Part shown: positions 8,210-25,798 of the stretch, piece by piece
Position numbering within the stretch: position 1 is the stretch's first letter
How the letters are laid out: each line of letters starts with the position of its first letter
Source: Hydrotalea sp.
GTDB taxonomy: Bacteria > Pseudomonadota > Alphaproteobacteria > JASGCL01
Assembly: GCA_030054115.1 (NCBI GenBank)
Contig: JASGCL010000001.1
Coordinates: 48,788-112,787, forward strand
DNA length: 64,000 nucleotides
Direction: 5' to 3'
Notes under the pieces: generated by a model
Told to the model about the DNA's origin: nothing
Seen by the model: only the letters and a program-made list of their open reading frames with translations
Databases searched by the model: none
Made by a program: the position numbers and the translations under genes

Positions 8210-8271
8210 GTTTTAGCTATAAAACCTGGCCGCAAAAAAAGCCATCAGATTTTTAAAAACCAGCGAAGACA

Positions 8272-9666
8272 TTAGGCGCGTTTAAAATTCGTTTTCTGCC
8301 AAAACCGCACTGCCAAAATCATGCCGACCAAAAACACACCAACAATAAAGCCCGCAATAATACCCATCGGGTGATGAAAAATATGAAAGCCAAAGATATA
8401 GGCCAGCGGCAGGCTAACCAACATATAACCAATGATGCTAACGATGCTTGAAAAGTTAAAATCACCAAGCCCGCGCAACGCCCCCAGCATGGTCGATTGC
8501 AACCCGTCAACCATCTGGCTGACCGCGCCAATCACCAAAAATCCGGCCGCCAGCGGAATGATAACATCTGCCAACGGCAAGCCCGCGCCAAAAAACGTGG
8601 CCACGCTGTTACCAACCAACAACAAAAACACCACCGACAACAGGGTTAAACAACTGACTATCATCAAGCTCGCCCCACCCGCGATGCGCAACCTTGAGAA
8701 TTGTTTTTTGCCAACAATGTCGGCTATCACAATGGTGGTGGCGTAGGTCATGCTGAGTGGTATCATGTAAAGCATTTCCAAAAAGCCATTGCTGATTTGT
8801 CTTGCCGCCAAGGCCTGAACCCCAAACCACCCAACCATAACGCCGAGCATGGCGTAGCTAACGACTTCAAAAAAACTTTCTATCGCAACGGGGATAGAAT
8901 TTTTTATAAAGTTCTTAATAATTTTTTTATCAAGCGGCGTTCGCAAAAACCATTTCGCCCCACCACCATTTTTTGTGCCATGATATTTTTTCATGCTGGG
9001 GTTTAAGAAGAAATACAAAAAAAATAATGCGTTAGATATCATGTCAGCCATCAACCACGCTATCCCCGCGCCAGCCAACCCAAGGGCGGGCAACCAATCC
9101 GCCACCCCAAAAATAAACCCATAGGCTAAGGGCAAGTTGACAACTATCATCGAAGAGTAAATCAACGTTGCCGTCCATGGTTTTTGCAACGCATCCAACG
9201 TTTGCTTTATCACGTAACCAGTCGCCCAAAAACCAATAGACAGCGACACCGTAATCCAATAACCAAAAACACCCGCCACAACCTCAATCGGTTGACCAAA
9301 TAACCGCAACAAAAAATAACAAGCAAACATCAACAGCCCAAACAATGACCCGGCGGTTATGGCCATGAAACAGCCGACGCGAACCACCTCCCCCACTTTT
9401 TTATATTGTTTACTGCCCGCCGCCTGGGCCACCATAATAACCAGGGGATTTAAAAAACCATAAACCGTGGCATAAAAAACCACCAAGAAAGTTGCTGTCA
9501 AGCCATAACCGGCCAATGGCACCGGCGAATCTAGTCGTGATAAAAAATAACTATCGGTTATGGCCAGTGCCGCCGTGGTCACCGATGATAAAATAATCGG
9601 TATGGCCAAGGCCGTAAGTTTTTTGCTATCCTTCAGCGTCTCGCGCCAAAAACTCTCTATTGTCAT
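8272..9666 (-). CDS. MATE family multidrug efflux transporter
   Basis: 464 aa with 12 predicted TM segments. N-terminal region typical of NorM/MATE (LALPIILSSVT...). Confidence 0.8.
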   Translation of the reverse strand: MTIESFWRETLKDSKKLTALAIPIILSSVTTAALAITDSYFLSRLDSPVPLAGYGLTATFLVVFYATVYGFLNPLVIMVAQAAGSKQYKKVGEVVRVGCFMAITAGSLFGLLMFACYFLLRLFGQPIEVVAGVFGYWITVSLSIGFWATGYVIKQTLDALQKPWTATLIYSSMIVVNLPLAYGFIFGVADWLPALGLAGAGIAWLMADMISNALFFLYFFLNPSMKKYHGTKNGGGAKWFLRTPLDKKIIKNFIKNSIPVAIESFFEVVSYAMLGVMVGWFGVQALAARQISNGFLEMLYMIPLSMTYATTIVIADIVGKKQFSRLRIAGGASLMIVSCLTLLSVVFLLLVGNSVATFFGAGLPLADVIIPLAAGFLVIGAVSQMVDGLQSTMLGALRGLGDFNFSSIVSIIGYMLVSLPLAYIFGFHIFHHPMGIIAGFIVGVFLVGMILAVRFWQKTNFKRA

Positions 9667-9700
9667 ATTTTTTTGCAGACTTTATGCTATAAAAAACACC

Positions 9701-10081
9701 ATGTCAATCTTTCGTGGAATCCTCAGCAACCCACTTGCCACCAGCCAGGGCATCATCCGCCGCGCCATGAAAAAAAATTTCAAATGGCCGAACGAAGCGG
9801 CGGTGTTGGAAAAATTGCAGGAGGAAATAAAGGAATTGCAGGCCGCGCTCAAAAATGGCGATAAAAAAAACCAACAGGAAGAGCTGGGCGATATTATCTT
9901 CACCGTGGTTTGCTTGAGCGAACAGATGAACCTGTCGGCGGAAAAAATCCTGGCACAGGCCAATCAAAAATTTAACCGCCGCTTTGCAAAAATGACGCGG
10001 CTTATCGCCCGCGATAAAAAATCGATGACCGCAATGTCGCCACAGCAATTGGAAGAATATTGGCAAAAAATCAAACATTAA
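9701..10081 (+). CDS. MazG-like nucleotide pyrophosphohydrolase (small all-alpha NTP-PPase)
   Basis: 126-aa product when started at the internal ATG at 9701. The ORF-track start at 9560 would overlap the divergent MATE gene. Contains the EExxE-type motif QEELGDIIFTVVCL characteristic of the MazG/NTP-PPase fold. Confidence 0.7.
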   Translation: MSIFRGILSNPLATSQGIIRRAMKKNFKWPNEAAVLEKLQEEIKELQAALKNGDKKNQQEELGDIIFTVVCLSEQMNLSAEKILAQANQKFNRRFAKMTRLIARDKKSMTAMSPQQLEEYWQKIKH

Positions 10082-10147
10082 GTTTGCTTTGCTAAACCAT
10101 AATTTTGTGGTAAAATAAGACATAAGGGGATTAGCAAATACAGCACC

Positions 10148-12334
10148 ATGCAAGCCGACCAGCTCATTTCTTCGGTTAAAAATTATAACCCGAACATCAA
10201 CGAAAAATTGTTGGCCGCGGCCTATGATTTTTCCGTCGCCGCCCATAAAAACCAAAAACGCCATTCGGGGCGCGATTATTTTGAACATCCCTTGGCGGTG
10301 GCGCAACTCCTCACCGAAAAAAAAATGGACGATGCAACCATCATCACCGCCTTGTTGCACGACACGGTCGAGGACACAACCATCAAACTATCGCAAATCA
10401 AAAAACAATTTGGCGAGGAGGTTTCGTTTTTGGTCGATGGCCTGACCAAAATTGCCCATTTGGAGGAAAGCGAACGCGAGATAAAAGATTCCGAAAATTT
10501 ACGAAAACTTTTGCTCGCCAGCATCGGCGACATCCGCGTTTTGATTGTCAAATTGGCCGACCGATTGCACAACATGCGCACCCTGGCCGGCAAACAAAAC
10601 CCCGACAGCCGCGCGCGCATCGCCGAGCAAACATTAGAAATCTACGTGCCATTGGCCGAGCGCATCGGCCTAAAACGTTGGAGCGAGGAATTGGCGTCCT
10701 TGGCCTTTAAAGAGCTCCACCCGGTGAGCTACGAATTAATCGACAAGCGGTTAAATTTTCTATACCGCGAGCAAGATGTAAACGACATCACGCGCACGCT
10801 GGAGGAATTGTTAAAGATCGAAAAGATGGAGGGGGCGATAAAATTTCGCCTCAAAGACCATTGGTCGATTTATCAAAAAATGCAAAAGAAGCAACGTCAG
10901 ATGGAGGACCTGTCCGACATCATGGCTTTTCGCATCGTTGTCAACAACACGCGCGATTGTTATTTGTGTTTGTGGTTGTTGCACGAACGTTACAAAACCA
11001 TTCCGACCAAACTGAAAGATTATATTTCCTCGCCGAAAAGCAACGGCTACCAAAGCCTGCACACCGTTATCATCGGCCCGGGCGACAAAAGGATAGAGGT
11101 GCAGATTCGCACCCACGCGATGGATGATTTTGCCGAAAATGGTTTGGCGTCTCATTGGTTATACAAACATGAAGCCAATGGTAACGGCGGCCACAACGCC
11201 GATGTTAAAAACAAATACCAACGTTATCACGATTCCGCCTTGACCTGGCTCAAGGATTTTTTTACCGCCATCGAGGAGGAAAAATCTGACCAGCTAAGTT
11301 TTTTAGACAGCAGTCGCACCTTCCTCTACACCGACCGGATTTATGTCTCCTCGCCCAAGGGTGATTTTTACGAACTGCCGATTAATTCCCTGCCGCTCGA
11401 TTTTGCCTTCGCGGTGCATAGCCGAGTCGGCGAGCAATTTTCTCACGCCCTGGTCAATGGGCGGCAGGTTTCGTTCTACACCAATTTAAAAAATGGCGAC
11501 ACGGTCGAAATTATCACCAGCGATAAAAAAATTATGCCAGAACAAAACTGGCTCCATTGGTTGAAAACGGCGCGCGCCAAAACCTTTGTGACAAAAAAAT
11601 TGAAGGAGCGGAAGGAGCAAACCTACCTCGTCCAAGGCCAAGATTTGCTGAAAACCGAATTGTTGCGCTTGGGGTTGATGACGCCCGATGAAACCAACAA
11701 CGTGACGCTCAACCTAAAAAAAGTATATAAAAAATTTGGCGTGGCCAGCGACGAGCAATTATATCGCCTTATCGCCCTGTCGCAAATCAGCGCGCGTGAG
11801 GTTTTATTCGTCCTTTACCCCGAAATGAAACGCGTCACGATTTACCGCGCCCGGCAAAAGAAAGCAAAACAATCAGCCGCCGAGATTGTCGATATTCGCC
11901 ATTTCACCAAAGATGTCTCGCTAAAATTTGCCGAATGTTGCTACCCCCTGCCCGGCGACCAAATTGCCGGCGTTATTAACTTAGGGGAAGGGCTGACCCT
12001 GCATCGCTTGGGTTGTAAAAAACTTTTACCTTTTCAACATCACCCCGACCGGATGATAGCGGTGCACTGGCAAAAAAAATCGGCGCATCAGGAAATCTTC
12101 ACCTCGCGTTTATTATTAAGTTTAAAAAATCGCCCGGGCGCGCTGAACCTGGTGACCGATGTCTTGACCAAAACCGGTAGCAACATCGCCAACGTTCTTT
12201 TTAAACTGCGCACCAAGGACCATGTTGAAATTATTTTAGACATCGAGGTATTCGGCCTGCGCCAAGTCAAAGAAATTATTGAAAAAATAAAATCAGCTGG
12301 TAAAGAAATGGTGCTTGAGATAAAACGCGCTTAA
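10148..12334 (+). CDS. spoT: Bifunctional (p)ppGpp synthetase/hydrolase (Rel/SpoT homolog)
   Basis: 728 aa with N-terminal HD hydrolase domain (HDTVEDT), synthetase domain, TGS and ACT-like C-terminal domains. Confidence 0.95.
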   Translation: MQADQLISSVKNYNPNINEKLLAAAYDFSVAAHKNQKRHSGRDYFEHPLAVAQLLTEKKMDDATIITALLHDTVEDTTIKLSQIKKQFGEEVSFLVDGLTKIAHLEESEREIKDSENLRKLLLASIGDIRVLIVKLADRLHNMRTLAGKQNPDSRARIAEQTLEIYVPLAERIGLKRWSEELASLAFKELHPVSYELIDKRLNFLYREQDVNDITRTLEELLKIEKMEGAIKFRLKDHWSIYQKMQKKQRQMEDLSDIMAFRIVVNNTRDCYLCLWLLHERYKTIPTKLKDYISSPKSNGYQSLHTVIIGPGDKRIEVQIRTHAMDDFAENGLASHWLYKHEANGNGGHNADVKNKYQRYHDSALTWLKDFFTAIEEEKSDQLSFLDSSRTFLYTDRIYVSSPKGDFYELPINSLPLDFAFAVHSRVGEQFSHALVNGRQVSFYTNLKNGDTVEIITSDKKIMPEQNWLHWLKTARAKTFVTKKLKERKEQTYLVQGQDLLKTELLRLGLMTPDETNNVTLNLKKVYKKFGVASDEQLYRLIALSQISAREVLFVLYPEMKRVTIYRARQKKAKQSAAEIVDIRHFTKDVSLKFAECCYPLPGDQIAGVINLGEGLTLHRLGCKKLLPFQHHPDRMIAVHWQKKSAHQEIFTSRLLLSLKNRPGALNLVTDVLTKTGSNIANVLFKLRTKDHVEIILDIEVFGLRQVKEIIEKIKSAGKEMVLEIKRA

Positions 12335-12360
12335 AGAAAATTTAAAACACCTCTTATACC

Positions 12361-12828
12361 TTGCCCCATTTTATGTCGAATAAATTTCTTGTCGCGCTTG
12401 CCAAAAATACCGGGCAAGGCATAAAGCCCATCAGCCATATTGTCGGCACGGGAATCGACCTTGCGCAAATTTCGCGATTTGAAAAAACCTTGCAACGCTT
12501 CCCCAAACGTTTTCCCGAATATGTTTTTACCGAACGCGAACGGCGTTATTGCGACAGCAAACCAATTCGCCGCACCGCCCGTTACGCCATGTTATTCTCG
12601 GCGAAGGAAGCCTGCTCCAAAGCCCTCGGCACTGGCATGCGCCAGGGCGTGCTGTGGCAAAATATGGAGGTCGTGCATTTAATGTCGGGCCAGCCAACCA
12701 TGGTGCTTCATGGTGGGGCGTTGAAACGGGCGAGGAGCCTGATGCCAAAAAATGCGACGCCGGTGGTGCATGTTTCCCTGACCGATGAAGCCGGCCTCGC
12801 CGCCGCCTCGGTCATGCTGGGGTGGTAA
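12361..12828 (+). CDS. acpS: Holo-[acyl-carrier-protein] synthase
   Basis: Core IVGTGIDLAQISRFEK ... FSAKEACSKALGTG matches AcpS. The annotated ATG adds about 28 N-terminal residues, so the true start may be a downstream non-ATG codon. Confidence 0.8.
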   Translation: MPHFMSNKFLVALAKNTGQGIKPISHIVGTGIDLAQISRFEKTLQRFPKRFPEYVFTERERRYCDSKPIRRTARYAMLFSAKEACSKALGTGMRQGVLWQNMEVVHLMSGQPTMVLHGGALKRARSLMPKNATPVVHVSLTDEAGLAAASVMLGW

Positions 12829-12846
12829 GGGTGGCTGATAAATTTT

Positions 12847-13485
12847 TTATCTGTTCTTGCCGGGCTTCCACATGACTTCGCCCTTGCCGCCGAACCGCGG
12901 ATCGCGCGCCAAGATGCGCGACAGCACAAATAACAAATCAGACAAACGATTGAGATATTGAATGGCCAGCGGGTTGACCTCCTCCATGTCCTGCAACGCA
13001 ACCGCACTGCGCTCGGCGCGGCGCGTCACGGTGCGCGCCAAATGCGCCACGGCCGCCAAATAACCACCGCCCGGCAAAATAAAAGATTCCAGCGCGGGCA
13101 AGGCATCGTTCCATGTGTCGATAACCAATTCCAACGATTGAACTTGTTTTTCCACAATTCGCAAATCGTGGCTGGGGGCAATGGGGACAAGCGTCAATGG
13201 TTTGGCCAAATCGGCCCCCAAATCAAACATGTCATGTTGCGCCGCGGTCAGCACCGTAACCATGTTGTCGCGGGTTACCGCGCCAGCAGATTGCCCGCCG
13301 GTCGATTGCTCGACCACCTCAGCATTCGTCAACCCATTCAACAACAGGCCGATGAAACTATTGGCTTCGTCCACATCGCCGTAGGCCGCCACCCGCAAAT
13401 CATTTTTTAAACGGCGCGACCCATCGGCCAACCCCGTGGTGCCATCGTCGCCAGTTTTTGTATAAATTTTATTTAATTTAACCAT
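12847..13485 (-). CDS. PduO-type ATP:cob(I)alamin adenosyltransferase
   Basis: 212 aa. The N-terminus IYTKTGDDGTTGL ... AYGDVDEANSFIGLL is the PduO/MMAB-family signature. Confidence 0.85.
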   Translation of the reverse strand: MVKLNKIYTKTGDDGTTGLADGSRRLKNDLRVAAYGDVDEANSFIGLLLNGLTNAEVVEQSTGGQSAGAVTRDNMVTVLTAAQHDMFDLGADLAKPLTLVPIAPSHDLRIVEKQVQSLELVIDTWNDALPALESFILPGGGYLAAVAHLARTVTRRAERSAVALQDMEEVNPLAIQYLNRLSDLLFVLSRILARDPRFGGKGEVMWKPGKNR

Positions 13486-13495
13486 CTATCAATTG

Positions 13496-13699
13496 CTAAT
13501 ACAGCCGCGCCAGCAAAAACCCAGCCAAAAACATAACGATAGCAAACAATTGCGCGCCGATGCGATAACGCATCAGCATGTTATTCCAACGATAATTTAA
13601 TTCGCCGCCCATCGCCATATTGACAACGCCCAGCACCAATATCACCAACGCCATTGCCATGCCCAGCAACATAAAAATAAATGCAATCAACGATACCAT
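13496..13699 (-). CDS. Small twin-transmembrane protein (HIG1/DUF2909-like)
   Basis: 67 aa with two hydrophobic helices. This is a common small-membrane-protein architecture in alphaproteobacteria. Assigned by topology only. Confidence 0.5.
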   Translation of the reverse strand: MVSLIAFIFMLLGMAMALVILVLGVVNMAMGGELNYRWNNMLMRYRIGAQLFAIVMFLAGFLLARLY

Positions 13700-13703
13700 G
13701 GTT

Positions 13704-14915
13704 TTAAAAACTTTCCTTTAATTGTTTTTCCACCATATCCAAAAATTGTGTAGTCGTCAAATAGCGATTTGCGTCGCCGATAATCGCCGCCAAATCTTTT
13801 GTCACCTGGCCGGCCTCGATGGTGCCAACAATAATTTTTTCCAATTTGTCGGCGAATGATTGCAACGGCGCGTTGCCATCCATCTTGCCACGATAACGCA
13901 ACCCGCCGGTCCAGGCAAAAATCGACGCCACCGGATTGGTCGAGGTCTCCTTGCCCGCCTGGTAATCGCGATAATGGCGCGTCACCGTGCCGTGGGCGGC
14001 CTCGGTCTCGACCGTTTTGCCATCGGGCGATAACAACACCGATGTCATCAACCCCAGCGACCCAAAACCCGCCGCCACCATGTCGGATTGCACATCGCCG
14101 TCGTAATTTTTTAATGCCCACAAATACCCGCCGTGCCCCCAAATGGTCTGCGCCACCATGTCGTCGATGAGGCGATGTTCGTAAAAAAGCTTGGCCTTCT
14201 CGAATTCAGCCTTAAATTCTTTGTCGTAAATTTCTTGGAAGATATTTTTGAATCGGCCGTCGTATAATTTCAACACGGTGTTTTTGGTCGAAAAATAAAC
14301 CGGAATATTTTTTTGCAAACCATAGTGAAAACAGGCGCGGGCGAAAGACATAATCGAGGCGTCGCTGTTAAACATTGCCAGGCCGATGCCGGCCGAATCA
14401 AAATGCCGCACCAATTTTTTTATCGGCGCACCGCCGCCCGCCGGCACAAATTCTAACGTCAAATCGCCCGGGCCATCGGCAATAATTTCGGTCGAGCGAT
14501 ATTGGTCGCCAAAGGCATGCCGCCCGACGACTATCGGTTTATCCCAACCAACCACCAATGGTTTCACATTGTGGCAAATAATTGGTTCACGAAAAATCGT
14601 GCCGTCCAAAAAATTTCTGATGGTCGCGTTGGGCGACGGATACATTTTTTTAAGATTAAATTCCTTGACCCGCGCCTCGTCCGGCGTGATGGTGGCACAT
14701 TTGATACCAACACCATATTGCTTAATCGCCTTCGCCGCATCAACGGTGATGGCATCATCGGTTTTATCGCGGCTTTCAATCCCCAAATCAAAATATTTAA
14801 GGTCAATATCGATATAGGGTAGAATCAATTTTTCCTTTATCATCGCCCACATGACGCGCGTCATTTCGTCGCCGTCCAATTCGACCACCGGGTTGTTGAC
14901 TTTTATTTTGGGCAT
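13704..14915 (-). CDS. icd: NADP-dependent isocitrate dehydrogenase (eukaryotic-like homodimeric type)
   Basis: 403 aa. N-terminal [20 protein letters not shown] and overall length match the IDH1-like bacterial ICDH subfamily. Confidence 0.9.
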
Positions 14916-14927
14916 GGGATTACTCTA

Positions 14928-15920
14928 TCAAGAAAAAATGTTTTGCGCAACCCGCATCTCGCCCGCCGCCAGACCGCGAAAACTTTTCAATTCCTTGCTT
15001 AAGGTTATGCGTTCTTTGGCCTTATCATCCACCAACCCCAATTTATGCAACACGCCGTTTAACGCCAATTGAGAAGCCCGCTCCGCCCCATCATCAATTT
15101 TTATTGCCACGCCAAGCCCAAGATGCGGAATAACCGCGGCGTAAAATGCCTCGGCACCGGTTTTAACAAAAACCTTGCCGGGCAATGTTTCCATCACCAT
15201 CGTGCAATGGCGACCGGTGCCGGCCACGAAATAGGGGTGCGCCATCGCGGCCTGCAACAACAAATCGGCACCGGCCTGGTCATCGCCGGCGTGCGCGCCA
15301 AACCGCGCCAGGCCGCGCGCCATCGCCACCATCGGCAGGGCAAAGGTCGGGGCAGAGCAACCATCGATAGCCGGCAGTGATAATTTTACGTCGCAAAATT
15401 TTTCTATCGTCTTGGCAATCTCGATCTGCACCGCGTGCGCCGGGTCGATATAATTTTTATGGTCGGTTTTTTTTGCATGGGCCAGCATCAACATGCCGCT
15501 GTGTTTGCCGGAACAATTATTATGCAGGGGGCATGGTGCCTCGCCGCGTTTTTCCAAATTAAAACTGGTCGCATGGTCATATGGGTTATGCGACCCGCAT
15601 TCCAACGCATCCATCGTCAGGTCGATTTTTTGCAACAACGCCGCCACCCGCCGCGTGTGCGGCAATTCGCCGCTGTGCGATGCCAACAGCAAAGCGTAAT
15701 CCTCGCCCGATAGCCGCAAGGATTCGGTAACGCCCGATAACACCACCGGCAAGGCCTGAAACATTTTTAACGACGACCGCGGGTAAGAAACCTGCGTCTC
15801 ATCACCCGCCGACCACACCACCTTGCCATCGCCATCGGCAACCACCACCGCGCCACGATGCACCGATTCGACACGGCCACCGCGACATACCTCAACCAAA
15901 ACTGGATTTTCCTGTGCCAT
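14928..15920 (-). CDS. L-asparaginase II family protein (PF06089)
   Basis: 330 aa. Contains NCSGKH, identical to the conserved motif of the Rhizobium etli-type asparaginase II family, and the N-terminal SVHRG segment. Confidence 0.75.
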   Translation of the reverse strand: MAQENPVLVEVCRGGRVESVHRGAVVVADGDGKVVWSAGDETQVSYPRSSLKMFQALPVVLSGVTESLRLSGEDYALLLASHSGELPHTRRVAALLQKIDLTMDALECGSHNPYDHATSFNLEKRGEAPCPLHNNCSGKHSGMLMLAHAKKTDHKNYIDPAHAVQIEIAKTIEKFCDVKLSLPAIDGCSAPTFALPMVAMARGLARFGAHAGDDQAGADLLLQAAMAHPYFVAGTGRHCTMVMETLPGKVFVKTGAEAFYAAVIPHLGLGVAIKIDDGAERASQLALNGVLHKLGLVDDKAKERITLSKELKSFRGLAAGEMRVAQNIFS

Positions 15921-16071
15921 GTCCCATTATAACAATTGGCAATAAAAATTACAAAGCTATAGATGGACAGATGCTTACCGATGCACCCTCTCTAAATTAA
16001 CTTGACAGGCATCAGGCCAAGGGTTATAATGCCACCATTCACGACGAATCCCGTATGGGCGTTTGAATATG

Positions 16072-16101
16072 AAAAAGGCAGTCATTCGACTGCCTTTTTT
16101 T
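16072..16101. terminator. Bidirectional rho-independent terminator
   Basis: gaaaaaGGCAGTCattcGACTGCCttttttt: 7-bp GC-rich stem, 4-nt loop, with an A-run upstream and a T-run downstream. Sits between the asparaginase-II gene and the AT-rich TA islet. Confidence 0.6.
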
Positions 16102-16211
16102 ATGATGCTTAGGGTAATATCTGTCGACAAAAATTACAAAGAATATTACCCGTAAGGACAACTAGCGATATAGATTTCTATAAATATCTATGTTAAGATA
16201 TGGCATAATTT

Positions 16212-16787
16212 GTGCAACAAGCAACGAGTGGTAGTAATATGCAAAATAAAAAAATTTATAGCGTAATTTTTTACATAATAAAAACGTGCCAAGATAAAAA
16301 CTATAAGCTTGGCGCAGTTCGACTCAATAAAATTATTTGGAATTCCGATATTTCTTATCTTAAAGAAAATGGGCGCACAATCACGGAAGAAAAATATGCC
16401 AAGCGCCAATATGGCCCAGTGGTGTTCTCTATGCCTTCTTATATTCGAGAGTTGACACTAAACGGATATATAGACTTTGCTAATAAAATTAGCAATTATG
16501 GAGAAAATGAATATAAAATGACTCTGTACTCTGTCAAAAATAATTTTACAGTAAGCTTATCGAGTAATGAGAAACAAATTATAGATAATTTTATAAATAA
16601 AATATGCAATCAAACTGCTCAAGAAGCAAGTGACGATACTCATGATAATGTCTATGAGCTTACTCCCGATGGTGAAGAAATGCCGTTGGGAGCTTATCTA
16701 TTTGCTGAACCTGCGCCTATAGATGAAAAAGATATAACAGAAGCAAAAAGAACTATTGAACAACTTTCTATAAAATCTAATGCCTAG
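16212..16787 (+). CDS. Panacea (DUF4065)-domain protein, putative type II antitoxin (PanA/SocA-like)
   Basis: 191 aa, AT-rich codon usage. The segment LGAVRLNKIIWNSDISYLKENGRTITEEKYAKRQYGPV resembles the Panacea-domain core (KLxKLLYxAD ... GPV). Its stop overlaps the next ORF by 8 nt. Confidence 0.5.
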   Translation: MQQATSGSNMQNKKIYSVIFYIIKTCQDKNYKLGAVRLNKIIWNSDISYLKENGRTITEEKYAKRQYGPVVFSMPSYIRELTLNGYIDFANKISNYGENEYKMTLYSVKNNFTVSLSSNEKQIIDNFINKICNQTAQEASDDTHDNVYELTPDGEEMPLGAYLFAEPAPIDEKDITEAKRTIEQLSIKSNA

Positions 16788-17064
16788 ATATAAAGTAGAA
16801 TTGTCAGAAAATGCAAAATCTCAATATAATGAGATGCAGCAAGATACTGACCTTCTAAAATTTTTCAATCTCTTGATAGAAAAATTATTGGTGATGCCAA
16901 CTGACGGCGCAACGCCTCTCCGAGCGAATGGAATTCCATATTTCTTATACAAAACTAACCCAAAAATTTGTAAGATAAGTATATTATTTCATGTAGATAA
17001 TAGTAAAAATATTGTGATAATTGAAAACGTTTCTACATACGACGAAAGCCAAGTAGCTTTTTAA
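16780..17064 (+). CDS. RelE/ParE-superfamily-like toxin
   Basis: 94 aa. The N-terminus YKVELSENAKSQYNEM and C-terminal I.ILFHVDNSKNIVIIENV resemble the ParE/RelE pattern (YkIefs.kA.kdl.kl ... yRiiY.id.....i.ilri). It is translationally coupled to the upstream Panacea ORF. Confidence 0.45.
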   Translation: MPRYKVELSENAKSQYNEMQQDTDLLKFFNLLIEKLLVMPTDGATPLRANGIPYFLYKTNPKICKISILFHVDNSKNIVIIENVSTYDESQVAF

Positions 17065-17065
17065 T

Positions 17066-17974
17066 TTATTCATCCGCCACCAATTTGGCGGGGTAGCCAG
17101 GCGCGCGCAGGTCGGTTTTTAATAAATCCTCCAGCAATTTGGCAATTTGCGTCGATTGTGCGTCGCCGCCATAGGCCGCCTTGCCGCTTAAAAAAGTTGG
17201 CATCAGGGCGGAGGCCAAGGTCAGGGGCACGCCAAATTCGCGGCCAAAGCCCAAGGCAAAACCCAAATCCTTTAACGTCAAGTCCATCGTGAAATCGATG
17301 TCGTAGCTACCATTTAAAATCAGCGCGCCCTCGGTCTCATGCACGAAACTATTGCCCGAGCTCGCCTTGATGGCTTCGTAGGCCGTGCCCAGGTCAAGCC
17401 CGCCGCGTTTTGCCAGCATCAGGGCCTCGCTACAGCCGACCAAATTGATGAAGGCCAACATGTTGGTGATGACCTTGATAATTGCCGCCGCACCAACCGG
17501 CCCCATGAAAAAAACCCGCGAGCCGATAAGGCGCAGGGCCTGCTCGTGCTTTTCAAACAGCGATTTATCACCGCCAACCAACACCGTGACCTTGCCCACA
17601 TCGGCCAAATGCACACCGCCAGTGACAGGGCATTCCAATGTTTTCACGCCATGCTCGTCCGCCACGTTGCTCAGGCGCATGATGTTATCGCGGTCAAGCG
17701 TGCTCATTTCTATCCACACCGCGTCTTTTTTAAATGCCGGCAGCATCTCGCGCAACACCCGTTCCGACACCGCGGGCGACGGCAAGCAAGTAATAACCGC
17801 ATCGACGCCGGTGGCGGCAGAACTGGCCGAGGTTGCGGCGGTCGCGCCCTTTTTCACCAAACGCGCCACGGCGTCTTTGCTCAGGTCGAAAACCTTAACC
17901 TGCAAACCGCCGCGCACCAAACAACCCGCCATTTTTTCGCCCAAATGCCCCAGGCCAACAAAACCATATTCCAT
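17066..17974 (-). CDS. NAD(P)-dependent oxidoreductase, 3-hydroxyisobutyrate dehydrogenase family
   Basis: 302 aa. N-terminal Rossmann motif GFVGLGHLG and a 6PGDH-like C-terminal domain, typical of MmsB/GarR-like enzymes. Confidence 0.8.
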   Translation of the reverse strand: MEYGFVGLGHLGEKMAGCLVRGGLQVKVFDLSKDAVARLVKKGATAATSASSAATGVDAVITCLPSPAVSERVLREMLPAFKKDAVWIEMSTLDRDNIMRLSNVADEHGVKTLECPVTGGVHLADVGKVTVLVGGDKSLFEKHEQALRLIGSRVFFMGPVGAAAIIKVITNMLAFINLVGCSEALMLAKRGGLDLGTAYEAIKASSGNSFVHETEGALILNGSYDIDFTMDLTLKDLGFALGFGREFGVPLTLASALMPTFLSGKAAYGGDAQSTQIAKLLEDLLKTDLRAPGYPAKLVADE

Positions 17975-18115
17975 GATACTCTCCGCTTAAAAATAAAATA
18001 TAAAAAATTTAATAAAATAATCCCCACCGACAAGATAACAACATCGTTGTCAAATTGCCGGCGGGGATTTTATATCGTGAAAACCACAATATCAATCAAG
18101 CAATCAAATGCTTGA

Positions 18116-19048
18116 TTACATGCCGAGGGCGGTTTTCACCGCTGGCATGCCGGGTTGGCCGTCAAACGTAGTGACGCCCTTCATCCATTTTTCGACTTGC
18201 GCCGGGTTGGCTTTCAACCAGGCCTTCACCACGCCAGCGGCGGGTTTTTTCTCAATATCGACCATGCCAATCAATTTGCTAATTTCATCGACGTTCATCA
18301 AATAATTAGAAAAGAATTTGGCCACGTTGGGGCAGTCGGATTTATAATCCTTACGGCCAAGGGTAGTAACTTTACCCGCGGCACCCAACCATTTTTCGCC
18401 ACCGGCGAGGTATTGTGGGTTATATTTGCTCATCCAGTGTGGTTCCCACGCCAGGTAAACGATATAACCATCCATTTTTTTACCAACCTCGGACAACATG
18501 GCGTTGGTCGAGGATTCGATAACTTGGAAATCCTTATCGGCTTTGATTTCTTTCAAGAAATCAGTGACGTGTTTATTGCCAGCCGAACCGGGTTCGATGC
18601 CATAGATTTTCCCATTCAATTGCGCCTTGAATTTTGGAATATCTTGCCATTTGGTCAGACCCGCCTTGTAAGCGGCTGGGGTGGTGGCAAGGGTATAACG
18701 AACCTTGGCCATGTTGGTGCCAAGGGTGTCAAAATTGCCCTTATATTGTTTTTCCAGGTCTGCATCAGACGGCAACCAGTTGGCAAGCATGATGTCAAGG
18801 TCTTTGTTCTTTAAAGAAGCAAAGGTGACAGCGGTGCTAACTTGGGTTTGTGACGTTTGATAACCCAACGCTTGCAACATCGCGCTCGCCCAGCCGATGC
18901 TGATGGTCAAATCTGACCAGCCCGGATTGGCAAAACGCACGGTTTTGCAAACGTCTTTGTCTTTTGCCGAGGCAGGGCCAGTGGCCAAAACCGCCGTCGC
19001 AAAAACGCTCAAAGCAAATAATTTTGCTTTATTTGATAATTTTATCAT
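18116..19048 (-). CDS. Glycine betaine/proline betaine ABC transporter substrate-binding protein (OpuAC/ProX family), copy 1
   Basis: 310 aa with Sec signal peptide. The conserved OpuAC core VRFANPGWSDLTISIGWAS and LAWEPHWMSKYNPQYLAGGEKWLG are present. Confidence 0.75.
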   Translation of the reverse strand: MIKLSNKAKLFALSVFATAVLATGPASAKDKDVCKTVRFANPGWSDLTISIGWASAMLQALGYQTSQTQVSTAVTFASLKNKDLDIMLANWLPSDADLEKQYKGNFDTLGTNMAKVRYTLATTPAAYKAGLTKWQDIPKFKAQLNGKIYGIEPGSAGNKHVTDFLKEIKADKDFQVIESSTNAMLSEVGKKMDGYIVYLAWEPHWMSKYNPQYLAGGEKWLGAAGKVTTLGRKDYKSDCPNVAKFFSNYLMNVDEISKLIGMVDIEKKPAAGVVKAWLKANPAQVEKWMKGVTTFDGQPGMPAVKTALGM

Positions 19049-19200
19049 GATGTATTTCCTCCAATCATCATAATGGTTGTTGCCTCATCTTTAGGGAAGG
19101 CCGCCCCAACCTCAGTAATCCTAAAAAAGAAAGACTACTCACTATAGAACAAGTTATAAAAAACACAAGAATAAAATAAACAATAATAGTCACAAAATAC

Positions 19201-19230
19201 AAAAAAAGCGGTGGCGCGCCGTTATTTTCT
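19201..19230. terminator. Bidirectional rho-independent terminator downstream of the cysN-like gene
   Basis: aaaaaaaGCGGTGGCGCGCCGTtattttctc: a GC-rich imperfect hairpin flanked by an A-run and a T-rich run. On the minus strand it reads as a hairpin followed by TTTTTTT directly after the cysN-like stop. Confidence 0.55.
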
Positions 19231-19274
19231 CGCTTCTTTAGCCGATTCGGCGGGGCCAGCCAGGTTTTTTTAAA

Positions 19275-20699
19275 TCATTCGGCCAACACGCCGGCGGCAA
19301 CGGTGTGGTGGGTAACCGGGTCGATAAGGATAAACGACCCCAAATTGCGATTGCCGTAGTAGGACGCGGCCACAATCGGTTGTTGCGATTTTATATTGGC
19401 GGAAAAAATGCTGTTCATCGCCACGACCTTATCCCCTACCGCTCCGCTTACGGCGGCCCTGTCGGTTGCAATATTGTTCAGGTCCATCAATTCCATGTCG
19501 GATAATTTAACAAATGTTTCGCGCGTCGTGTGTTTCAAAATATATTTTGTATTGGGGTTCAACGCGTCGTTATCAAACCAACATAACATGCTGTGTTGTA
19601 AATTGGTGGTGGCTTGCGCGGGCAATGGGGCTGATGAATCTTCTTTGCCATGCGGCACCGCCAGCTTGACAATATAATTACCACGGCCGGCCTCGACCTC
19701 GCCATCGAATTGCATGGTGATGGTTTGTCCCGCCGTCGCCATATCGGTTGCCTCACCATTTTCGTTATAAATGGTTTTGATGGCAATTGTCGCCCCCGCC
19801 GGCATAACCCGCACCTGGTCACCGGTTTTAAAATGGCCGGCTTCAATCCGCCCCTGGTAACCGCGAAATTTCACCCCAACCCCCTGGCCTTCCTTCAGCA
19901 CATATTGCACCGGCAAAATACCGCCAATCTGGTTGGCCAATTTTTCACCGCCAAGCACCGATAATTTATCAAGGTAAGCCAGCAAGGGCTCGCCATCATA
20001 CCAGCCGAGGTTTTTTGATTTATCAACGATGTTATCCCCCTGCTTGGCCGATATGGGAATAATCATGGGGTTGCTTACCGCCCCTACGCCCACTTCTGCA
20101 CCATTGCCATTTTTTGGCTGGCGCAACACCCGCCAAAGTTTTTTATAAAACCCGAGGTAAGCCTCGGCGATTTTTTGATATTTTTGTTCGTCGAAAGCTA
20201 TCGCGTCCATTTTATTCACCGCGACAATAATATGTTGCACCCCCAACATCACCAACACCGCGCTGTGGCGTTTGGTTTGGATAAGCAACAATTCATCGCC
20301 GTCTTTTGTAAAATCCAACTTGGTCGGGTCGAGCAAGATAATCGCCACATCGGCGGTTGAGGCACCGGTAACCATGTTTCTGGTATAGGCCTCGTGCCCC
20401 GGGCAATCGGCCAAAATGTAACGGCGGGTTTCGGTGGTGAAGTAGCGATAGGCCACGTCGATGGTTATGCCCTGTTCTTTTTCGGCGATTAAACCATCGG
20501 TCAGGGCGGCGAAATCGGGTGCGCCGCCAGCTGAACCGGTCGTGCCATCCTCATGCAAAATTTCCAATTGGTCGCGGGTTAAAACCTTGGCGTCGAACAA
20601 CAACCGCCCGATAAGGGTGGATTTTCCATCATCGACACTGCCCGCGGTTATGACCCGCAATGTTTCCTTCATGCCCGCACCCATAGCCAATTTTTCCAC
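19275..20699 (-). CDS. cysN: Sulfate adenylyltransferase subunit 1-like GTPase (CysN family), orphan
   Basis: 474 aa. GSVDDGKSTLIGRLL, QGITIDVAYRYFTTETRRYILADCPGHEAYTRNM and VAVNKMD match CysN/NodQ GTPase motifs almost residue for residue. No cysD lies upstream. Confidence 0.8.
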   Translation of the reverse strand: MEKLAMGAGMKETLRVITAGSVDDGKSTLIGRLLFDAKVLTRDQLEILHEDGTTGSAGGAPDFAALTDGLIAEKEQGITIDVAYRYFTTETRRYILADCPGHEAYTRNMVTGASTADVAIILLDPTKLDFTKDGDELLLIQTKRHSAVLVMLGVQHIIVAVNKMDAIAFDEQKYQKIAEAYLGFYKKLWRVLRQPKNGNGAEVGVGAVSNPMIIPISAKQGDNIVDKSKNLGWYDGEPLLAYLDKLSVLGGEKLANQIGGILPVQYVLKEGQGVGVKFRGYQGRIEAGHFKTGDQVRVMPAGATIAIKTIYNENGEATDMATAGQTITMQFDGEVEAGRGNYIVKLAVPHGKEDSSAPLPAQATTNLQHSMLCWFDNDALNPNTKYILKHTTRETFVKLSDMELMDLNNIATDRAAVSGAVGDKVVAMNSIFSANIKSQQPIVAASYYGNRNLGSFILIDPVTHHTVAAGVLAE

Positions 20700-20736
20700 A
20701 AAACGCTAGACACCTATTTCATAAGTCCCCACCCCA

Positions 20737-21738
20737 CTACATCCCGATATACATGCCGAGGGCGGTTTTTACGATGGGTAATGCCGGTTTGCCGTCGAAT
20801 GTTTTAACGCCCTTTAACCACCGTTCCAGCTGAGCCGGGTGCTGTTGCAACCAATGGCGCGCCACTTGCTCGACGGGTTTTTTGTTAATGTCGACCTCGA
20901 TAATCATTTTGTTCAGCTCGCCCACGTCGAACGCTAAATTGCCAAAAAATTTGGCAAGGTTGGGGCAATCGCTGTCGTAACCTTTTCGCGCTTGGGTCAT
21001 CACCTTGCCCTCGACCCCCAACCATTTTTCGCCACCCGCCAGGTATTGCGGGTTATATTTGCTCATCCAATGGGGTTCCCACGCCAAATAAACAACATAG
21101 CCATTGATATTTTTTTCAACCGCGCTCAGCATGGCGTTGGTCGATGTTTCCACAACTTGGAAATCTTTGTCGGCATCGATGTCTTTTAAAAACTCCTGCA
21201 CATGTTTGTTGCCGGCCGATCCAGGCTCGATAACATAAATTTTTCCATTTAATTGTTTTTTAAATTTGGTGATGTCTTGCCACGTGCGCAGGCCAGCCTT
21301 GTAAGCGGTTGGCGTCGTCGCCAGGCTGTAACGTACCCTCGGCATGTTGGTGCCCAACATGACAAAATCGCCCTGGTATTTTTTTTGCAAATCCTCGCCC
21401 GCTGGCAACCAATCGCCCAATGTAACATCGATGTTGTTGCTTTTGAATCCCTCGTAAACCAGTGTTGACCCGACCGATACCTGTTTCGGCACATAACCCA
21501 TGGCGCGTAATATGGTGCTCGACCAGCCGATGCTGATGGTTAAATCGGACCAGCCCGGGTTGGCGAAGCGCACCGATTTGCAAACCTCTTTATCGCCTGA
21601 CGGGCGACGCGTTTCGTCGGCCGCATGTGATATGGTTGCGGGCAATAATAAGCCAGCGGTTATTATTGCGATTAGTATAGTTAGTGAAGTTTTTTTTGTT
21701 TTGGTTGATATTATTTTTTTGCTTGATTGTTTTATCAT
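20737..21738 (-). CDS. Glycine betaine-type ABC substrate-binding protein (OpuAC/ProX family), copy 2
   Basis: 333 aa with signal peptide. Paralog of 18116-19048 with long stretches of near-identical DNA, for example the gccacc[g/c]gc[g/c]aggtattg[t/c]gggttatatttgctcatcca region. Confidence 0.75.
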   Translation of the reverse strand: MIKQSSKKIISTKTKKTSLTILIAIITAGLLLPATISHAADETRRPSGDKEVCKSVRFANPGWSDLTISIGWSSTILRAMGYVPKQVSVGSTLVYEGFKSNNIDVTLGDWLPAGEDLQKKYQGDFVMLGTNMPRVRYSLATTPTAYKAGLRTWQDITKFKKQLNGKIYVIEPGSAGNKHVQEFLKDIDADKDFQVVETSTNAMLSAVEKNINGYVVYLAWEPHWMSKYNPQYLAGGEKWLGVEGKVMTQARKGYDSDCPNLAKFFGNLAFDVGELNKMIIEVDINKKPVEQVARHWLQQHPAQLERWLKGVKTFDGKPALPIVKTALGMYIGM

Positions 21739-22132
21739 GTCTTTCTTATTGTTTCCTATTTAAGTTACATTTTTATATTGACCAGATACCTAATTTATAC
21801 CGCCGGTCGTTTGCTACCTCGGGTATTCTCTACCCTGTCACGCTGTCCTTAATTCCCCCTTTGTTTCTTTTTGGGGGTGTCGCCTATCTATCTTGCGATT
21901 TATCACCATAGCACTATAAAGAATAAATTAATAAAACAAAACCACCACACCACCGATTGTCGTCATTGGCAAAATTTAAACACAAATGGGCGATATTAAC
22001 CACCGTATTTCTAGGCCATTTCATATTTATAAAAATACCACCGGCGCATGGTTGGCACTTGGGTTGCCGATTAATTACCCATTTGTTGCTCATTGTTGCT
22101 CACGGCGGCGAGCTGTGCTACAAACAAGGGTA

Positions 22133-22936
22133 ATGAATTTTATAAAAAAAATCGCCACCGCTTTTGTCTCCTTGCTCGGCACGATTGGCCAAACGGTTTT
22201 GGCCGTCGTTGATTCGGCGGGCGCGATATTATTGTTTTTTATGCGCGGCCTGTTGGCGGGTATTGTGCCACCCTATTACCCACGCCTGTGGTTGGCGCAA
22301 ATGGCCGAGATTGGTTTTTATTCCTTGCCGGTGGTGGGCTTAACAACGATATTCAGCGGCATGGTACTGGCGATTCAAGCCATCGGCAGTTTAAACGCCA
22401 GCCTGGCCCCGGTTGCCGTGCCCAACTTGGTGGTGTTCGCCATGATTAAGGAATTATCGCCGGTGTTGGTTGGGTTGATGGTCGCCGGCCGTATTGGTTC
22501 GGCCATTTCGGCCGAATTGGGCACTATGCGGGTCAGCGAACAAATCGACGCCTTGCACACCCTTAACACCAACGTATTTTCCTATTTGGTTTTTCCGCGA
22601 TTATTGGCGGCCATGTTGATGATGCCATTGTTGGTGTTGGTCGGCGATTTGCTCGGCATCTTCGGCGGTTACATCATGGCGGTGCAACAGGCCGGCCTGC
22701 CCAGCGACGTTTTCCTTAACAATGCCTGGGCGGCGATAACATTCAGCGGCGTGTTCGGCGGTTTGATTAAGGCCTTTGCCTTCGGCCTTATCGTTGCCCT
22801 GATGGGTTGTTACCACGGGTATCATTGCGGCGGCGGGGCCGAGGGGGTCGGCATTGCCACCACCCGCGCCGTGGTCAGCTCCTCTATCCTTATCCTTATC
22901 GCCAACTTCCTCATCACCATCTGGTGGTATCAATAA
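22133..22936 (+). CDS. mlaE: Phospholipid (Mla) ABC transporter permease MlaE
   Basis: 267 aa from the internal start MNFIKKIATAF. Multi-TM MlaE/Ttg2B-family permease. Confidence 0.85.
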   Translation: MNFIKKIATAFVSLLGTIGQTVLAVVDSAGAILLFFMRGLLAGIVPPYYPRLWLAQMAEIGFYSLPVVGLTTIFSGMVLAIQAIGSLNASLAPVAVPNLVVFAMIKELSPVLVGLMVAGRIGSAISAELGTMRVSEQIDALHTLNTNVFSYLVFPRLLAAMLMMPLLVLVGDLLGIFGGYIMAVQQAGLPSDVFLNNAWAAITFSGVFGGLIKAFAFGLIVALMGCYHGYHCGGGAEGVGIATTRAVVSSSILILIANFLITIWWYQ

Positions 22937-22955
22937 AAAATAAAAAATAAAAAAC

Positions 22956-23732
22956 ATGACCATCGCACCCATGAATAACCAAATGAATAGCCAAGAAAAA
23001 CTTATCACCGTCAACAACCTGTCGGTGGCGTTCGGCAAGAAAAAGGTTCTGCGCAACCTGTCGATTGATTTGGCGCGTGGCGAATCCTTGGCGGTTATTG
23101 GCGCGTCTGGTTCGGGGAAATCGGTGTTGTTTAAATCAATCCTTGGCCTGTTGGATGTGCGTTACAGCGGCCGCGTGTCGTTGCTGGGCATCGAACCCAC
23201 CACGGCGTCGCGCGGCAAATTGACTGAGGCCTTTAAAAAAATTGGCATGTTGTTTCAATATTCGGCGTTATTTGATTCCCTGCCCTTGTGGCAAAATGTT
23301 GCTTTCCAAGCATACCAAACAAAACAATTGTCAAAGGATGAAGCCCGCGCCCAAGCGATTGAATTGATGGAACGGGTCGGTGTGACGCGCGACAACGCAG
23401 ATTTGTTTCCGGCGGAAATTTCGGGCGGCATGAAAAAACGGGTTGGCTTGGCGCGGGCATTGTTCATGAAGCCCGAATTATTATTTATCGACGAACCGAC
23501 GGCCGGCCTTGACCCATTAATGTGCCGCGTGATTGACAATTTGGTGTTGGAAAATATTCGCGCCTATAACGCGACCGCGGTAACCATCACCCACGATTTG
23601 GACACGGTGCGCCACACCGCCAGCCGGGTTGCATTGTTGCACGAGGGGGTTATTGCCTGGCAGGGCACCCCCGCCGAAATGTTCGCCAGCCAAAACCCCA
23701 TTGTCAAATCGTTCGTTGAGGCACGGCGGTAG
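22956..23732 (+). CDS. mlaF: Phospholipid (Mla) ABC transporter ATP-binding protein MlaF
   Basis: 258 aa with Walker A GASGSGKS, the ABC signature ISGGMKKR and Walker B LLFIDEPTAGLDP. Follows mlaE by 19 nt. Confidence 0.85.
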   Translation: MTIAPMNNQMNSQEKLITVNNLSVAFGKKKVLRNLSIDLARGESLAVIGASGSGKSVLFKSILGLLDVRYSGRVSLLGIEPTTASRGKLTEAFKKIGMLFQYSALFDSLPLWQNVAFQAYQTKQLSKDEARAQAIELMERVGVTRDNADLFPAEISGGMKKRVGLARALFMKPELLFIDEPTAGLDPLMCRVIDNLVLENIRAYNATAVTITHDLDTVRHTASRVALLHEGVIAWQGTPAEMFASQNPIVKSFVEARR

Positions 23733-23780
23733 GGACGAATTAGGAAAACCATATCACTAAGGTTATTTTTCCTTGCTATA

Positions 23781-23810
23781 TTGCTTGAATCAAGCTAAGG
23801 TTGGTATAGT
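23781..23810 (+). promoter_or_regulatory. Putative sigma70-type promoter for the AT-rich three-gene cassette
   Basis: TTGCTT - 18 nt - TATAGT, about 25 nt upstream of the first ATG of the cassette. Pattern match only. Confidence 0.35.
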
Positions 23811-23833
23811 GTTAAATATGCTGTGTCTAATAT

Positions 23834-24637
23834 ATGAAAGAAATTAAAATGGCGCAACATCCTAAAAGACTTAAAATTTTGCCGCTGGTTGATGCCGTAT
23901 TTGAAATAAGGTTCAGGCATCCCTTTAAAGCTTATCAGGCAATCGTTGGGACTATTTATAACAATGTTGATTCAGAATATAAAAACAAAGAAATTATTAA
24001 CACCAACGAATCTGTGTTGCCAAAGCCCGTGAGGGATTCTCAGCCCCAATTCGAATACGCAATGTTAAATATAATCTCCCTAGATGGAATTTTTATTGGA
24101 GTGGGAGAGAAAGCACTTAACCTGGTTGCTAAATATCCTTATCCAGGTTGGGACGTTTTTAAGCAGAAAATTTTTAAAGTGTTAGATATTCTACAAGAGG
24201 GCACAGACGACACCTCTATAAATCGCTTCAGTTTAAAATACATTGATGTTATAGATAATAGCAGATTAATTAACCCTAGCAATCACTTGGACTCTTTAAA
24301 AATACAATTAAATATATTAGAGCAAAACTACCAAAAAGATATTTTCCATTTTATAATTACCACAAAAGATGAAAAAAATCATGCTATAAGTACTATACTT
24401 AATTTATCAGCACCAGCTGAGGTTAAAATTAATGGCGAAGCAACATATGAAGCAACCAATGGTATTAGAATTGACATAGATGTTATAAAAAATGTTGAAG
24501 AAGACCTAACCATACGCTCTCTATTAACAACAATAAAAAATCAGGACTCAGTTCTAGATGAAATGCATATAAAGGTTAAAAATTTATTCTTTAATATATT
24601 GGACGCAAAAGTAATAAAGAATCATGATCCCGAGTAA
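23834..24637 (+). CDS. Hypothetical protein, TIGR04255-like N-terminus
   Basis: 267 aa, strongly AT-rich codons. N-terminal LPLVDAVFEIRF resembles the conserved start of TIGR04255-family proteins. No catalytic motif recognised. Confidence 0.55.
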   Translation: MKEIKMAQHPKRLKILPLVDAVFEIRFRHPFKAYQAIVGTIYNNVDSEYKNKEIINTNESVLPKPVRDSQPQFEYAMLNIISLDGIFIGVGEKALNLVAKYPYPGWDVFKQKIFKVLDILQEGTDDTSINRFSLKYIDVIDNSRLINPSNHLDSLKIQLNILEQNYQKDIFHFIITTKDEKNHAISTILNLSAPAEVKINGEATYEATNGIRIDIDVIKNVEEDLTIRSLLTTIKNQDSVLDEMHIKVKNLFFNILDAKVIKNHDPE

Positions 24638-24646
24638 GTTTTAAAA

Positions 24647-25204
24647 ATGACATACGCTTTGCCCCTGCCCCTGTCTTCTTTCAATAATTTGGAGAAGTCT
24701 GCTACGCCATTAAATTTATTTAATGGTCTAAAACAATCGGAGAGATTTAATTACATTTCACGCCAATCTGGCCGTCAAATGAGTATTATCAAATCTATTT
24801 TAAATATAGATGATAACAACTCATATTATAACGCTAATATTAAATTTGAAATAGAAAAAAAGATTGCACAAGCTATTCAGAGGACACGAGAAGAGGATGA
24901 AAAAATCAGACCAAATGCAACATCCCAAACGAACCTGTTGGCATTTCTTTCTACTGGTAATTTTGATTTGCCATCAGTTTTTTTACTTGAAAATGGTGTA
25001 TTCCAAATAGTTTGGTCTAAAGGGGCGGGAGAAAGAATAGAAGTTCAATTTCTAGAAGATGGCTTCATAGAGCTAGCGGCGATTATTAAAGAAGGAAATA
25101 AAAATGTTCCTAGATATTTTGTATATCAAGAGAAAGAAAACGTTATTAGACAAATTAAAAATGATAGATTAGACAGAATCATCAATGAAAAAAAACATAC
25201 CTGA
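24647..25204 (+). CDS. Hypothetical protein (orphan ORF 2 of the cassette)
   Basis: 185 aa. Begins 10 nt after ORF1 on the same strand with AT-rich composition. No recognisable domain. Confidence 0.5.
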   Translation: MTYALPLPLSSFNNLEKSATPLNLFNGLKQSERFNYISRQSGRQMSIIKSILNIDDNNSYYNANIKFEIEKKIAQAIQRTREEDEKIRPNATSQTNLLAFLSTGNFDLPSVFLLENGVFQIVWSKGAGERIEVQFLEDGFIELAAIIKEGNKNVPRYFVYQEKENVIRQIKNDRLDRIINEKKHT

Positions 25205-25619: not shown

Positions 25620-25798
25620 TATTTTTTGCCCCCGATTTGGCATCGCCGAATAGAATTATAGTATTATTCTTTAAAGAATAATGAATGGTTTTAGACGCTG
25701 GCTAAAATAGCTCCCTACTTGCAAGACCCCGAACAAATATACTTGACCACACTGGCCTGTTTACTAACGCTGGTGCCGGCCATGCTGTTAGTAATAAA

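Follow-up and report, generated by a model that had tools for sequence, protein, structure and literature searches.

Panacea is a hyperpromiscuous antitoxin domain, and ParE is named among its partner domains and Conserved Domain Database matches (Kurata et al. 2022, PNAS, PMC8832971). In Dataset S1 of that paper, the partners of the Panacea antitoxin (PanA) in clusters T14, T28, T59 and T60 are RelE-, ParE-, HigB-2- or YoeB-like by HHpred, the T14 partner matching HigB-2 at 99.7%; in all four clusters PanA has no N-terminal domain ('noNTD'), the antitoxin gene comes first and the two genes overlap (-4 to -32 nucleotides, nt), and all four are marked there as untested (PMC8832971). In the same source, pairs of PanA with its partner toxin PanT (PanAT) are treated as type II systems, and PanAs other than SocA were tested as ClpXP proteolytic adaptors. 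In Ernits et al. (2023, PMC10440598), RelE/ParE is one of the folds that recur in the network, and direct toxin neutralisation by a standalone Panacea domain is demonstrated. Here we describe a small AT-rich locus in a 64,000-nt stretch of contig JASGCL010000001.1 (hereafter the window), which is probably a horizontally acquired, minimal two-gene toxin-antitoxin (TA) module of PanAT type (type II-like), made of a PanA and a PanT with a RelE/ParE fold. A reading made from the letters of the window alone (the sequence-only reading) had proposed that this pairing may be novel. That proposal falls, since PanA-first clusters with RelE-, ParE-, HigB-2- or YoeB-like partners are already in the main text and Dataset S1 of Kurata et al. 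(PMC8832971); the arrangement and the fold-level pairing are known bioinformatically, and only this orphan sequence of the putative toxin is new here.

The locus consists of two overlapping open reading frames (ORFs) in a low-GC islet, with the following features:

15921..17065, no strand: low-GC islet, from the asparaginase-II gene start to the dehydrogenase gene stop (composition profile)
16239..16787 (alternative GTG start at 16212), + strand: panA-like gene, ORF1 (ORF list, Pfam PF13274, phrog_1281, identical NCBI protein)
16323..16649, + strand: Panacea core domain, residues 29-137 of the 182-amino-acid (aa) protein (Pfam match)
16650..16784, + strand: acidic PanA C-terminal tail, residues 138-182 (charge calculation; role inferred)
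16780..16787, + strand: 8-nt overlap of ORF1 and ORF2, ATGCCTAG (sequence)
16780..17064, + strand: ORF2, sequence orphan with a predicted RelE/ParE-superfamily fold, putative toxin PanT

ORF1 (16212..16787) is 191 aa long from the GTG, the version called in NCBI and Logan, or 182 aa from the ATG at 16239, and ORF2 is 94 aa long. The TAG of ORF1 (16785-16787) is located inside the start of ORF2 (junction ATGCCTAGATA), and translation of ORF2 is likely coupled to that of panA, because ORF2 has no Shine-Dalgarno sequence. The two ORFs of 191 and 94 aa, the peptides quoted from them and the TAG lying 8 nt inside ORF2 had all been described correctly from the letters; the span then given, 16148-17065, does contain the gene pair, but 16148 lies in non-coding upstream DNA and coding begins at 16212 or 16239. 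Between approximately 15921 and 17065 the GC content is 0.31-0.37, compared with 0.50-0.60 on either side, and the 1.1-kb islet as a whole has 33.1% GC in a window of 48.4%, as its earlier description as AT-rich implied; the genes on its two sides have 55-60% GC. At third codon positions the two ORFs have GC values of 0.25 and 0.27 (about 0.26), against 0.63 and 0.69 in the flanking asparaginase-II and dehydrogenase genes, and this composition (GC 33%) points to a foreign origin of the islet. ORF2 ends at 17064 and a convergent 302-aa NAD-binding dehydrogenase ORF ends at 17066, leaving the single nucleotide between them that had been reported before.

ORF1 is genuinely a Panacea-domain protein. 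It matches Pfam PF13274 (SocA_Panacea) with 53.7 bits (gathering cut-off 25.7, E 4.8e-14) over residues 29-137 (182-aa numbering), that is, positions 1-109 of the 113 of the profile, and this hidden Markov model (HMM) check upholds the identity first assigned from the letters. A second match, to phrog_1281 (E 7.8e-14), places residue 2 opposite position 6 of the profile, and an identical protein in NCBI, MDI9313115.1, is named 'Panacea domain-containing protein'. The residue pairs G59-P60 and H135-D136 are invariant when ORF1 is aligned with two homologues from phages. There is no additional N-terminal domain, which makes ORF1 a standalone Panacea protein. Its 45-residue tail (138-182), with an isoelectric point (pI) of 4.2, can be aligned with that of a Helicobacter canis prophage homologue and is a candidate toxin-contacting or regulatory extension.

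In regards to the recurrence of this arrangement, tblastn against phage records found PanA homologues (26-30% identity), one in a prophage of Helicobacter canis and the other in a virus of Methanobacteriales, each followed by a small ORF with an overlap of 4 or 8 nt. With a profile built from these two PanAs and that of the window, 265 Panacea proteins of the standalone type were recovered, each about 170 aa long; the contigs of seven of them were inspected, which together with the two phage-record homologues gives nine relatives. In eight of the nine, from phages, Campylobacterota and Methanobacteriales, a small ORF overlaps the PanA gene or lies close downstream, whereas a decayed remnant is what the ninth retains; the window pair thus shows the conserved two-gene arrangement with a small partner. 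The partners found beside the seven profile-retrieved PanAs, with their contigs in brackets, are:

P0017 (L084): 53-aa ORF (truncated copy), 1 nt past the PanA stop
P0018 (L086): 84-aa ORF, 11-nt overlap
P0015 (L088): 91-aa ORF, 1 nt past the PanA stop
P0033 (L090): 93-aa ORF, 4-nt overlap
P0065 (L093): 123-aa ORF, 12-nt gap
P0022 (L094): 147-aa ORF, 11-nt overlap
P0068 (L092): toxin gene remnant, frameshifted

The closest relatives of the window PanA are found in phages and prophages, adjoining integrase or portal genes. The Methanobrevibacter curvatus pair of cluster T14 was recovered here as P0065, which belongs to the same profile family as the window PanA, and the Methanobacteriales partners correspond to that cluster. 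The partners form mutually unlinkable groups, namely a Campylobacterota/phage family, a Methanobacteriales family with weak HigB-2 matches (E 0.008-0.013) and ORF2 of the window; hhalign gave no significant link among these groups, and the Campylobacterota-phage partner profile had no RelE/ParE match in PDB.

The partners from Campylobacterota, phage and unclassified metagenomes are a coherent family of 84-93 aa (MQxNTPDDLFKIY...INALCL...), without a match in Pfam, PHROG or PDB, and are a candidate uncharacterised PanT family. Its genes are located as follows:

L082, 3019-3282: Campylobacterota-type partner gene
L086, 2530-2784: Campylobacterota-type partner gene
L088, 2524-2799: Campylobacterota-type partner gene
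L090, 2534-2815: Campylobacterota-type partner gene
L084: copy truncated to 53 aa

In Methanobrevibacter filiformis (LWMT01000047.1; L092, 2001-2715) the intact PanA P0068, 35% identical to that of the window, has on its 3' side what is left of a HigB2-like toxin gene, frameshifted and full of stops, with fragments such as ...FRCKSIKKRNRSGFRLIFD running into a stop codon. This locus is a case of toxin decay beside a retained Panacea gene.

ORF2 is an orphan at the sequence level. Profile scans with Pfam, NCBIfam and PADLOC assigned it to no family at E values up to 10, and the PADLOC models did not match ORF1 either; the PHROG 'RelE-like toxin' profile was reached at E 0.11 only, in a match that covers protein and profile from end to end. 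A PDB sequence search gave no match, tblastn of PanA and ORF2 against plasmids found nothing, and when 5.8 billion clusters were searched by word index and 1.84 billion representatives in full with phmmer, only ORF2 itself was returned. Two further matches from these searches were discarded as spurious, being giant low-complexity or repetitive proteins. No NCBI accession exists for ORF2 in the protein collection, where only a Logan gene call represents it, and the GenBank record of this metagenome-assembled genome (MAG) seems to carry no annotation of the putative toxin gene.

Its fold could nevertheless be predicted. A single-sequence AlphaFold2 model of ORF2 (predicted local distance difference test score, pLDDT, 69.3) has a strand at residues 5-8, helices at 10-19 and 23-38 and strands at 45-49, 52-56, 65-73 and 78-87. 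This beta1-alpha1-alpha2-beta2-5 order has the N-terminal strand, two-helix hairpin and antiparallel sheet of 3-4 strands by which the RelE/ParE fold is recognised. The same method gave a pLDDT of only 35 for PanA, so that the quality of the ORF2 model is not what the method returns for any input. A local alignment of ORF2 to E. coli RelE, whose sequence was verified as identical to that in PDB 4v7k, is collinear (z 3.9), with 3 of 1000 shuffles reaching its score. In Foldseek the model matches RelE, YoeB and HigB2 far above the classical ParDE entry, which has rank 36; a search of this type in a viral fold library gave nothing informative. We assign ORF2 a predicted RelE/ParE-superfamily fold with moderate-to-good confidence, the model leaning to the RelE/YoeB/HigB2 branch. 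The RelE/ParE identity suggested from the letters therefore survives as a fold supported by structure prediction, and not as an HMM match to any Pfam, NCBIfam or PADLOC family.

If the pair is a PanAT module, free ORF2 would arrest growth. Its most likely target is translation, where it would be a ribosome-associated mRNA endonuclease belonging to the RelE/YoeB/HigB2 branch, though its active site would not be the canonical one. PanA would bind ORF2 directly, by way of the Panacea core, the acidic C-terminal tail or both, and thereby neutralise it, and the module could serve as an addiction or abortive-infection element. Our preference for a translation-targeting toxin over a ParE-like or an inactive protein is held with low confidence. 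The catalytic residues of E. coli RelE are K52, K54, R61, R81 and Y87, and active sites vary across the RelE family and superfamily. In the best pairwise alignment only K52 is kept in ORF2 (as K58), while K54, R61, R81 and Y87 fall on N60, S67, Y87 and A93, in an alignment that has about 15% identity and is unreliable. ORF2 has a pI of 5.7 and a net charge of -1.4, against a pI of 9.7 for E. coli RelE, a mild acidity that is atypical for a ribosome-binding mRNA endonuclease. Because ORF2 is mildly acidic and keeps one of the five RelE catalytic residues, its putative activity is uncertain. These observations weigh against the proposed module, and so do several others: ORF2 matches no toxin family significantly by HMM or sequence; its fold assignment rests on one medium-confidence single-sequence model; and hhalign links it significantly neither to the Campylobacterota-phage partner family nor to the Methanobacteriales HigB2-like family (probability 0.2% in both cases). 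Furthermore, in the accessible parts of Kurata et al. (PMC8832971) eight PanTs are non-toxic in E. coli, two of them labelled mRNase, the 'mRNase' candidates of Table S1 are non-toxic, not neutralisable or not clonable, and Dataset S1 gives no test result for any RelE/ParE-like cluster.

The eight non-toxic PanTs, the acidity of ORF2 and the replacement of most RelE catalytic residues would also fit a relic or non-toxic derivative, in which ORF2 keeps the RelE/ParE fold, its toxicity has been lost or was never present and the pair has no TA function; ORF2 is moreover a singleton without relatives, so that no purifying selection can be demonstrated, and decay of toxins linked to PanA does occur, as in the frameshifted copy of Methanobrevibacter filiformis and the truncated one of L084. 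We consider this unlikely, however, with both ORFs intact, the 8-nt coupling preserved and ORF2 still encoding a domain predicted to fold, and the missing RelE residues are no proof of inactivity given how variable RelE-family active sites are. That ORF2 is instead a ParE-type toxin, poisoning DNA gyrase rather than cutting mRNA, seems improbable to us: Foldseek puts RelE, YoeB and HigB2 well over the classical ParDE entry, the nearest PanA relatives whose partner can be identified have HigB2-like and not ParE-like ones, and the model has no long C-terminal segment past its last strand. It would take a rare coincidence for ORF2 to be a chance ORF in AT-rich DNA, with PanA solo and the RelE-like model a single-sequence artefact. 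ORF2 does lack both a homologue and an NCBI accession, its pLDDT is only 69, and among 2000 first-order Markov simulations matching the composition of the islet, scored for the longest ATG-ORF, one of 94 aa or longer arose in 3.7%; a 182-aa ORF arose in none (0/2000), nor did the pair of 182 and 94 aa (0/2000). In regards to the role of the pair, anti-phage abortive infection with Panacea as the trigger sensor, rather than addiction or stabilisation, would be compatible with the PanAT mechanism and is put forward tentatively, as the less probable role. Ernits et al. (2023, PMC10440598) propose Panacea as a sensor and link TA networks to phage defence, and the closest PanA relatives reside in phages or prophages beside integrase or portal genes; against it, neither PanA nor ORF2 matches a PADLOC model, and the pair has neither phage nor defence genes next to it in the window.

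The flanking genes indicate that the host is an alphaproteobacterium, the dehydrogenase sharing 87% identity with one from an Alphaproteobacteria MAG and about 67% with its counterparts in Rhodobacterales. The Panacea protein MDI9313115.1, identical to ORF1, is nevertheless placed by NCBI in a 'Hydrotalea sp.' MAG, and Hydrotalea is a genus of Bacteroidota; since the flanking genes are alphaproteobacterial and the label is not, the contig was probably mis-binned or mislabelled as Hydrotalea. Among 80 dehydrogenase loci we did not find an empty site, asparaginase II being adjacent in 0/80, and the closest of them, the 87%-identical one (L002), has different downstream genes, so that synteny cannot show an insertion. 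Metagenome scans with PanA peptides, and an empty-site scan with a degenerate pattern of the dehydrogenase C-terminus, gave no match. No tRNA gene was found within 8000-26000 of the window, no integrase or transposase among the genes called on an identical 9-kb contig (L001), and no phage or defence genes adjacent to the pair within the window. The stops of ORF2 and the dehydrogenase (17062-17068) are one nucleotide apart without a terminator in between, and the two transcripts must therefore overlap. The C-terminus of the dehydrogenase is as long as that of its 87%-identical relative, from which it follows that the insert stops exactly at the stop codon. The islet is also flanked by a 14-nt inverted repeat (15946-15959 and 17054-17067), which we judge compatible with chance in AT-rich DNA.

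Upstream of panA the islet contains further elements:

16002..16030, + strand: sigma-70 consensus promoter TTGACA-17-TATAAT, 12/12 (promoter scan; consensus match only)
16036..16106, + strand: 71-nt two-hairpin RNA-like element ending in an intrinsic terminator (RNA folding, inverted repeat)
16112-16120 and 16143-16151, no strand: perfect 9-bp inverted repeat GGGTAATAT / ATATTACCC with a 22-nt spacer (read from sequence)
16201..16209, + strand: extended -10-like element TGGCATAAT (read from sequence)

The terminator hairpin, whose presence upstream of the pair had been pointed out before, is indeed there, with a perfect 12-bp stem and a 4-nt loop (16072-16099) followed by T7 up to 16101. The 71-nt element folds with -27.2 kcal/mol (z -5.2), a stability reached by 0 of 200 shuffles; it was found only in the window and in the identical contig L001, and an Rfam scan of it gave no family above threshold. 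It may be an unannotated small RNA or a leader/attenuator for panAT, and the 9-bp inverted repeat is a possible operator. The extended -10-like element was not reported by the two-hexamer promoter scan; if it is used, transcription begins 3' of the GTG at 16212, and the ATG at 16239 (182 aa) would then be the true start of panA. An imperfect 27-nt direct repeat (15930-15956 and 16115-16141, 78% identical, with an exact 11-nt core AAAAATTACAA) flanks the 185-bp promoter-hairpin element and may be the scar of a duplication or an insertion, or have arisen by chance in AT-rich DNA. A 28-aa ORF at 16069-16155 was discarded as an upstream membrane-peptide toxin, its start codon being inside the terminator stem and its sequence having no uninterrupted hydrophobic span. 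A more far-reaching and quite unlikely possibility is that ORF2, being acidic, short of the RelE catalytic set and without sequence relatives, founds an unseen RelE/ParE-fold branch with a new target or mechanism, neutralised directly by a standalone Panacea domain, in a three-part module that the strongly promoted 71-nt RNA or attenuator may control.

The locus contributes a further example of the hyperpromiscuous pairing of Panacea antitoxins, without an advance in concept. It does illustrate how fast partner toxins diverge: three PanA relatives with about 26-33% identity have partners between which neither sequence nor profile searches give a link, and at least two of these partners appear to share the RelE-superfamily fold. 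Small toxin genes such as the putative ORF2 can escape standard annotation and be recoverable only through gene context and structure prediction. The window pair is also a possible test case, because the RelE/ParE-like PanT clusters in the accessible part of Dataset S1 carry no test result (PMC8832971).

Compared with the known systems, the pair shares with SocAB, the type VI system of Caulobacter, the Panacea domain of SocA, the namesake of PF13274. It differs in that ORF1 scores only 13.7 bits against the cut-off of 190 of the SocA equivalog model (NCBIfam SocA_antitoxin, NF047745), and in that ORF2 is not SocB-like and has a predicted RelE-like fold. In RelBE, YefM-YoeB and HigBA the antitoxins are RelB, YefM/Phd and HigA, whereas here it would be a Panacea-domain protein, and ORF2 departs from their toxins by its negative net charge and by matching no Pfam or NCBIfam RelE/ParE model; relative to RelBE in particular, RelE K54, R61, R81 and Y87 are not conserved in the ORF2 alignment. 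The antitoxin of ParDE is different as well, ORF2 has no ParE_toxin HMM match and the ParDE entry comes far below RelE and YoeB in Foldseek. The closest likeness is to the PanAT clusters with RelE-, ParE-, HigB-2- or YoeB-like partners. ORF2 stands apart from their partners in having no similarity to any catalogued or public protein, and as a singleton it would fail the conservation and reciprocity filters of Kurata et al. (PMC8832971); the T14-like partner is basic (pI 9.15), while ORF2 is acidic. The locus resembles these clusters in having a standalone Panacea gene first, a small partner of predicted RelE/ParE fold second and the two genes overlapping (-8 here), in an accessory module of the kind found in chromosomes and phages.
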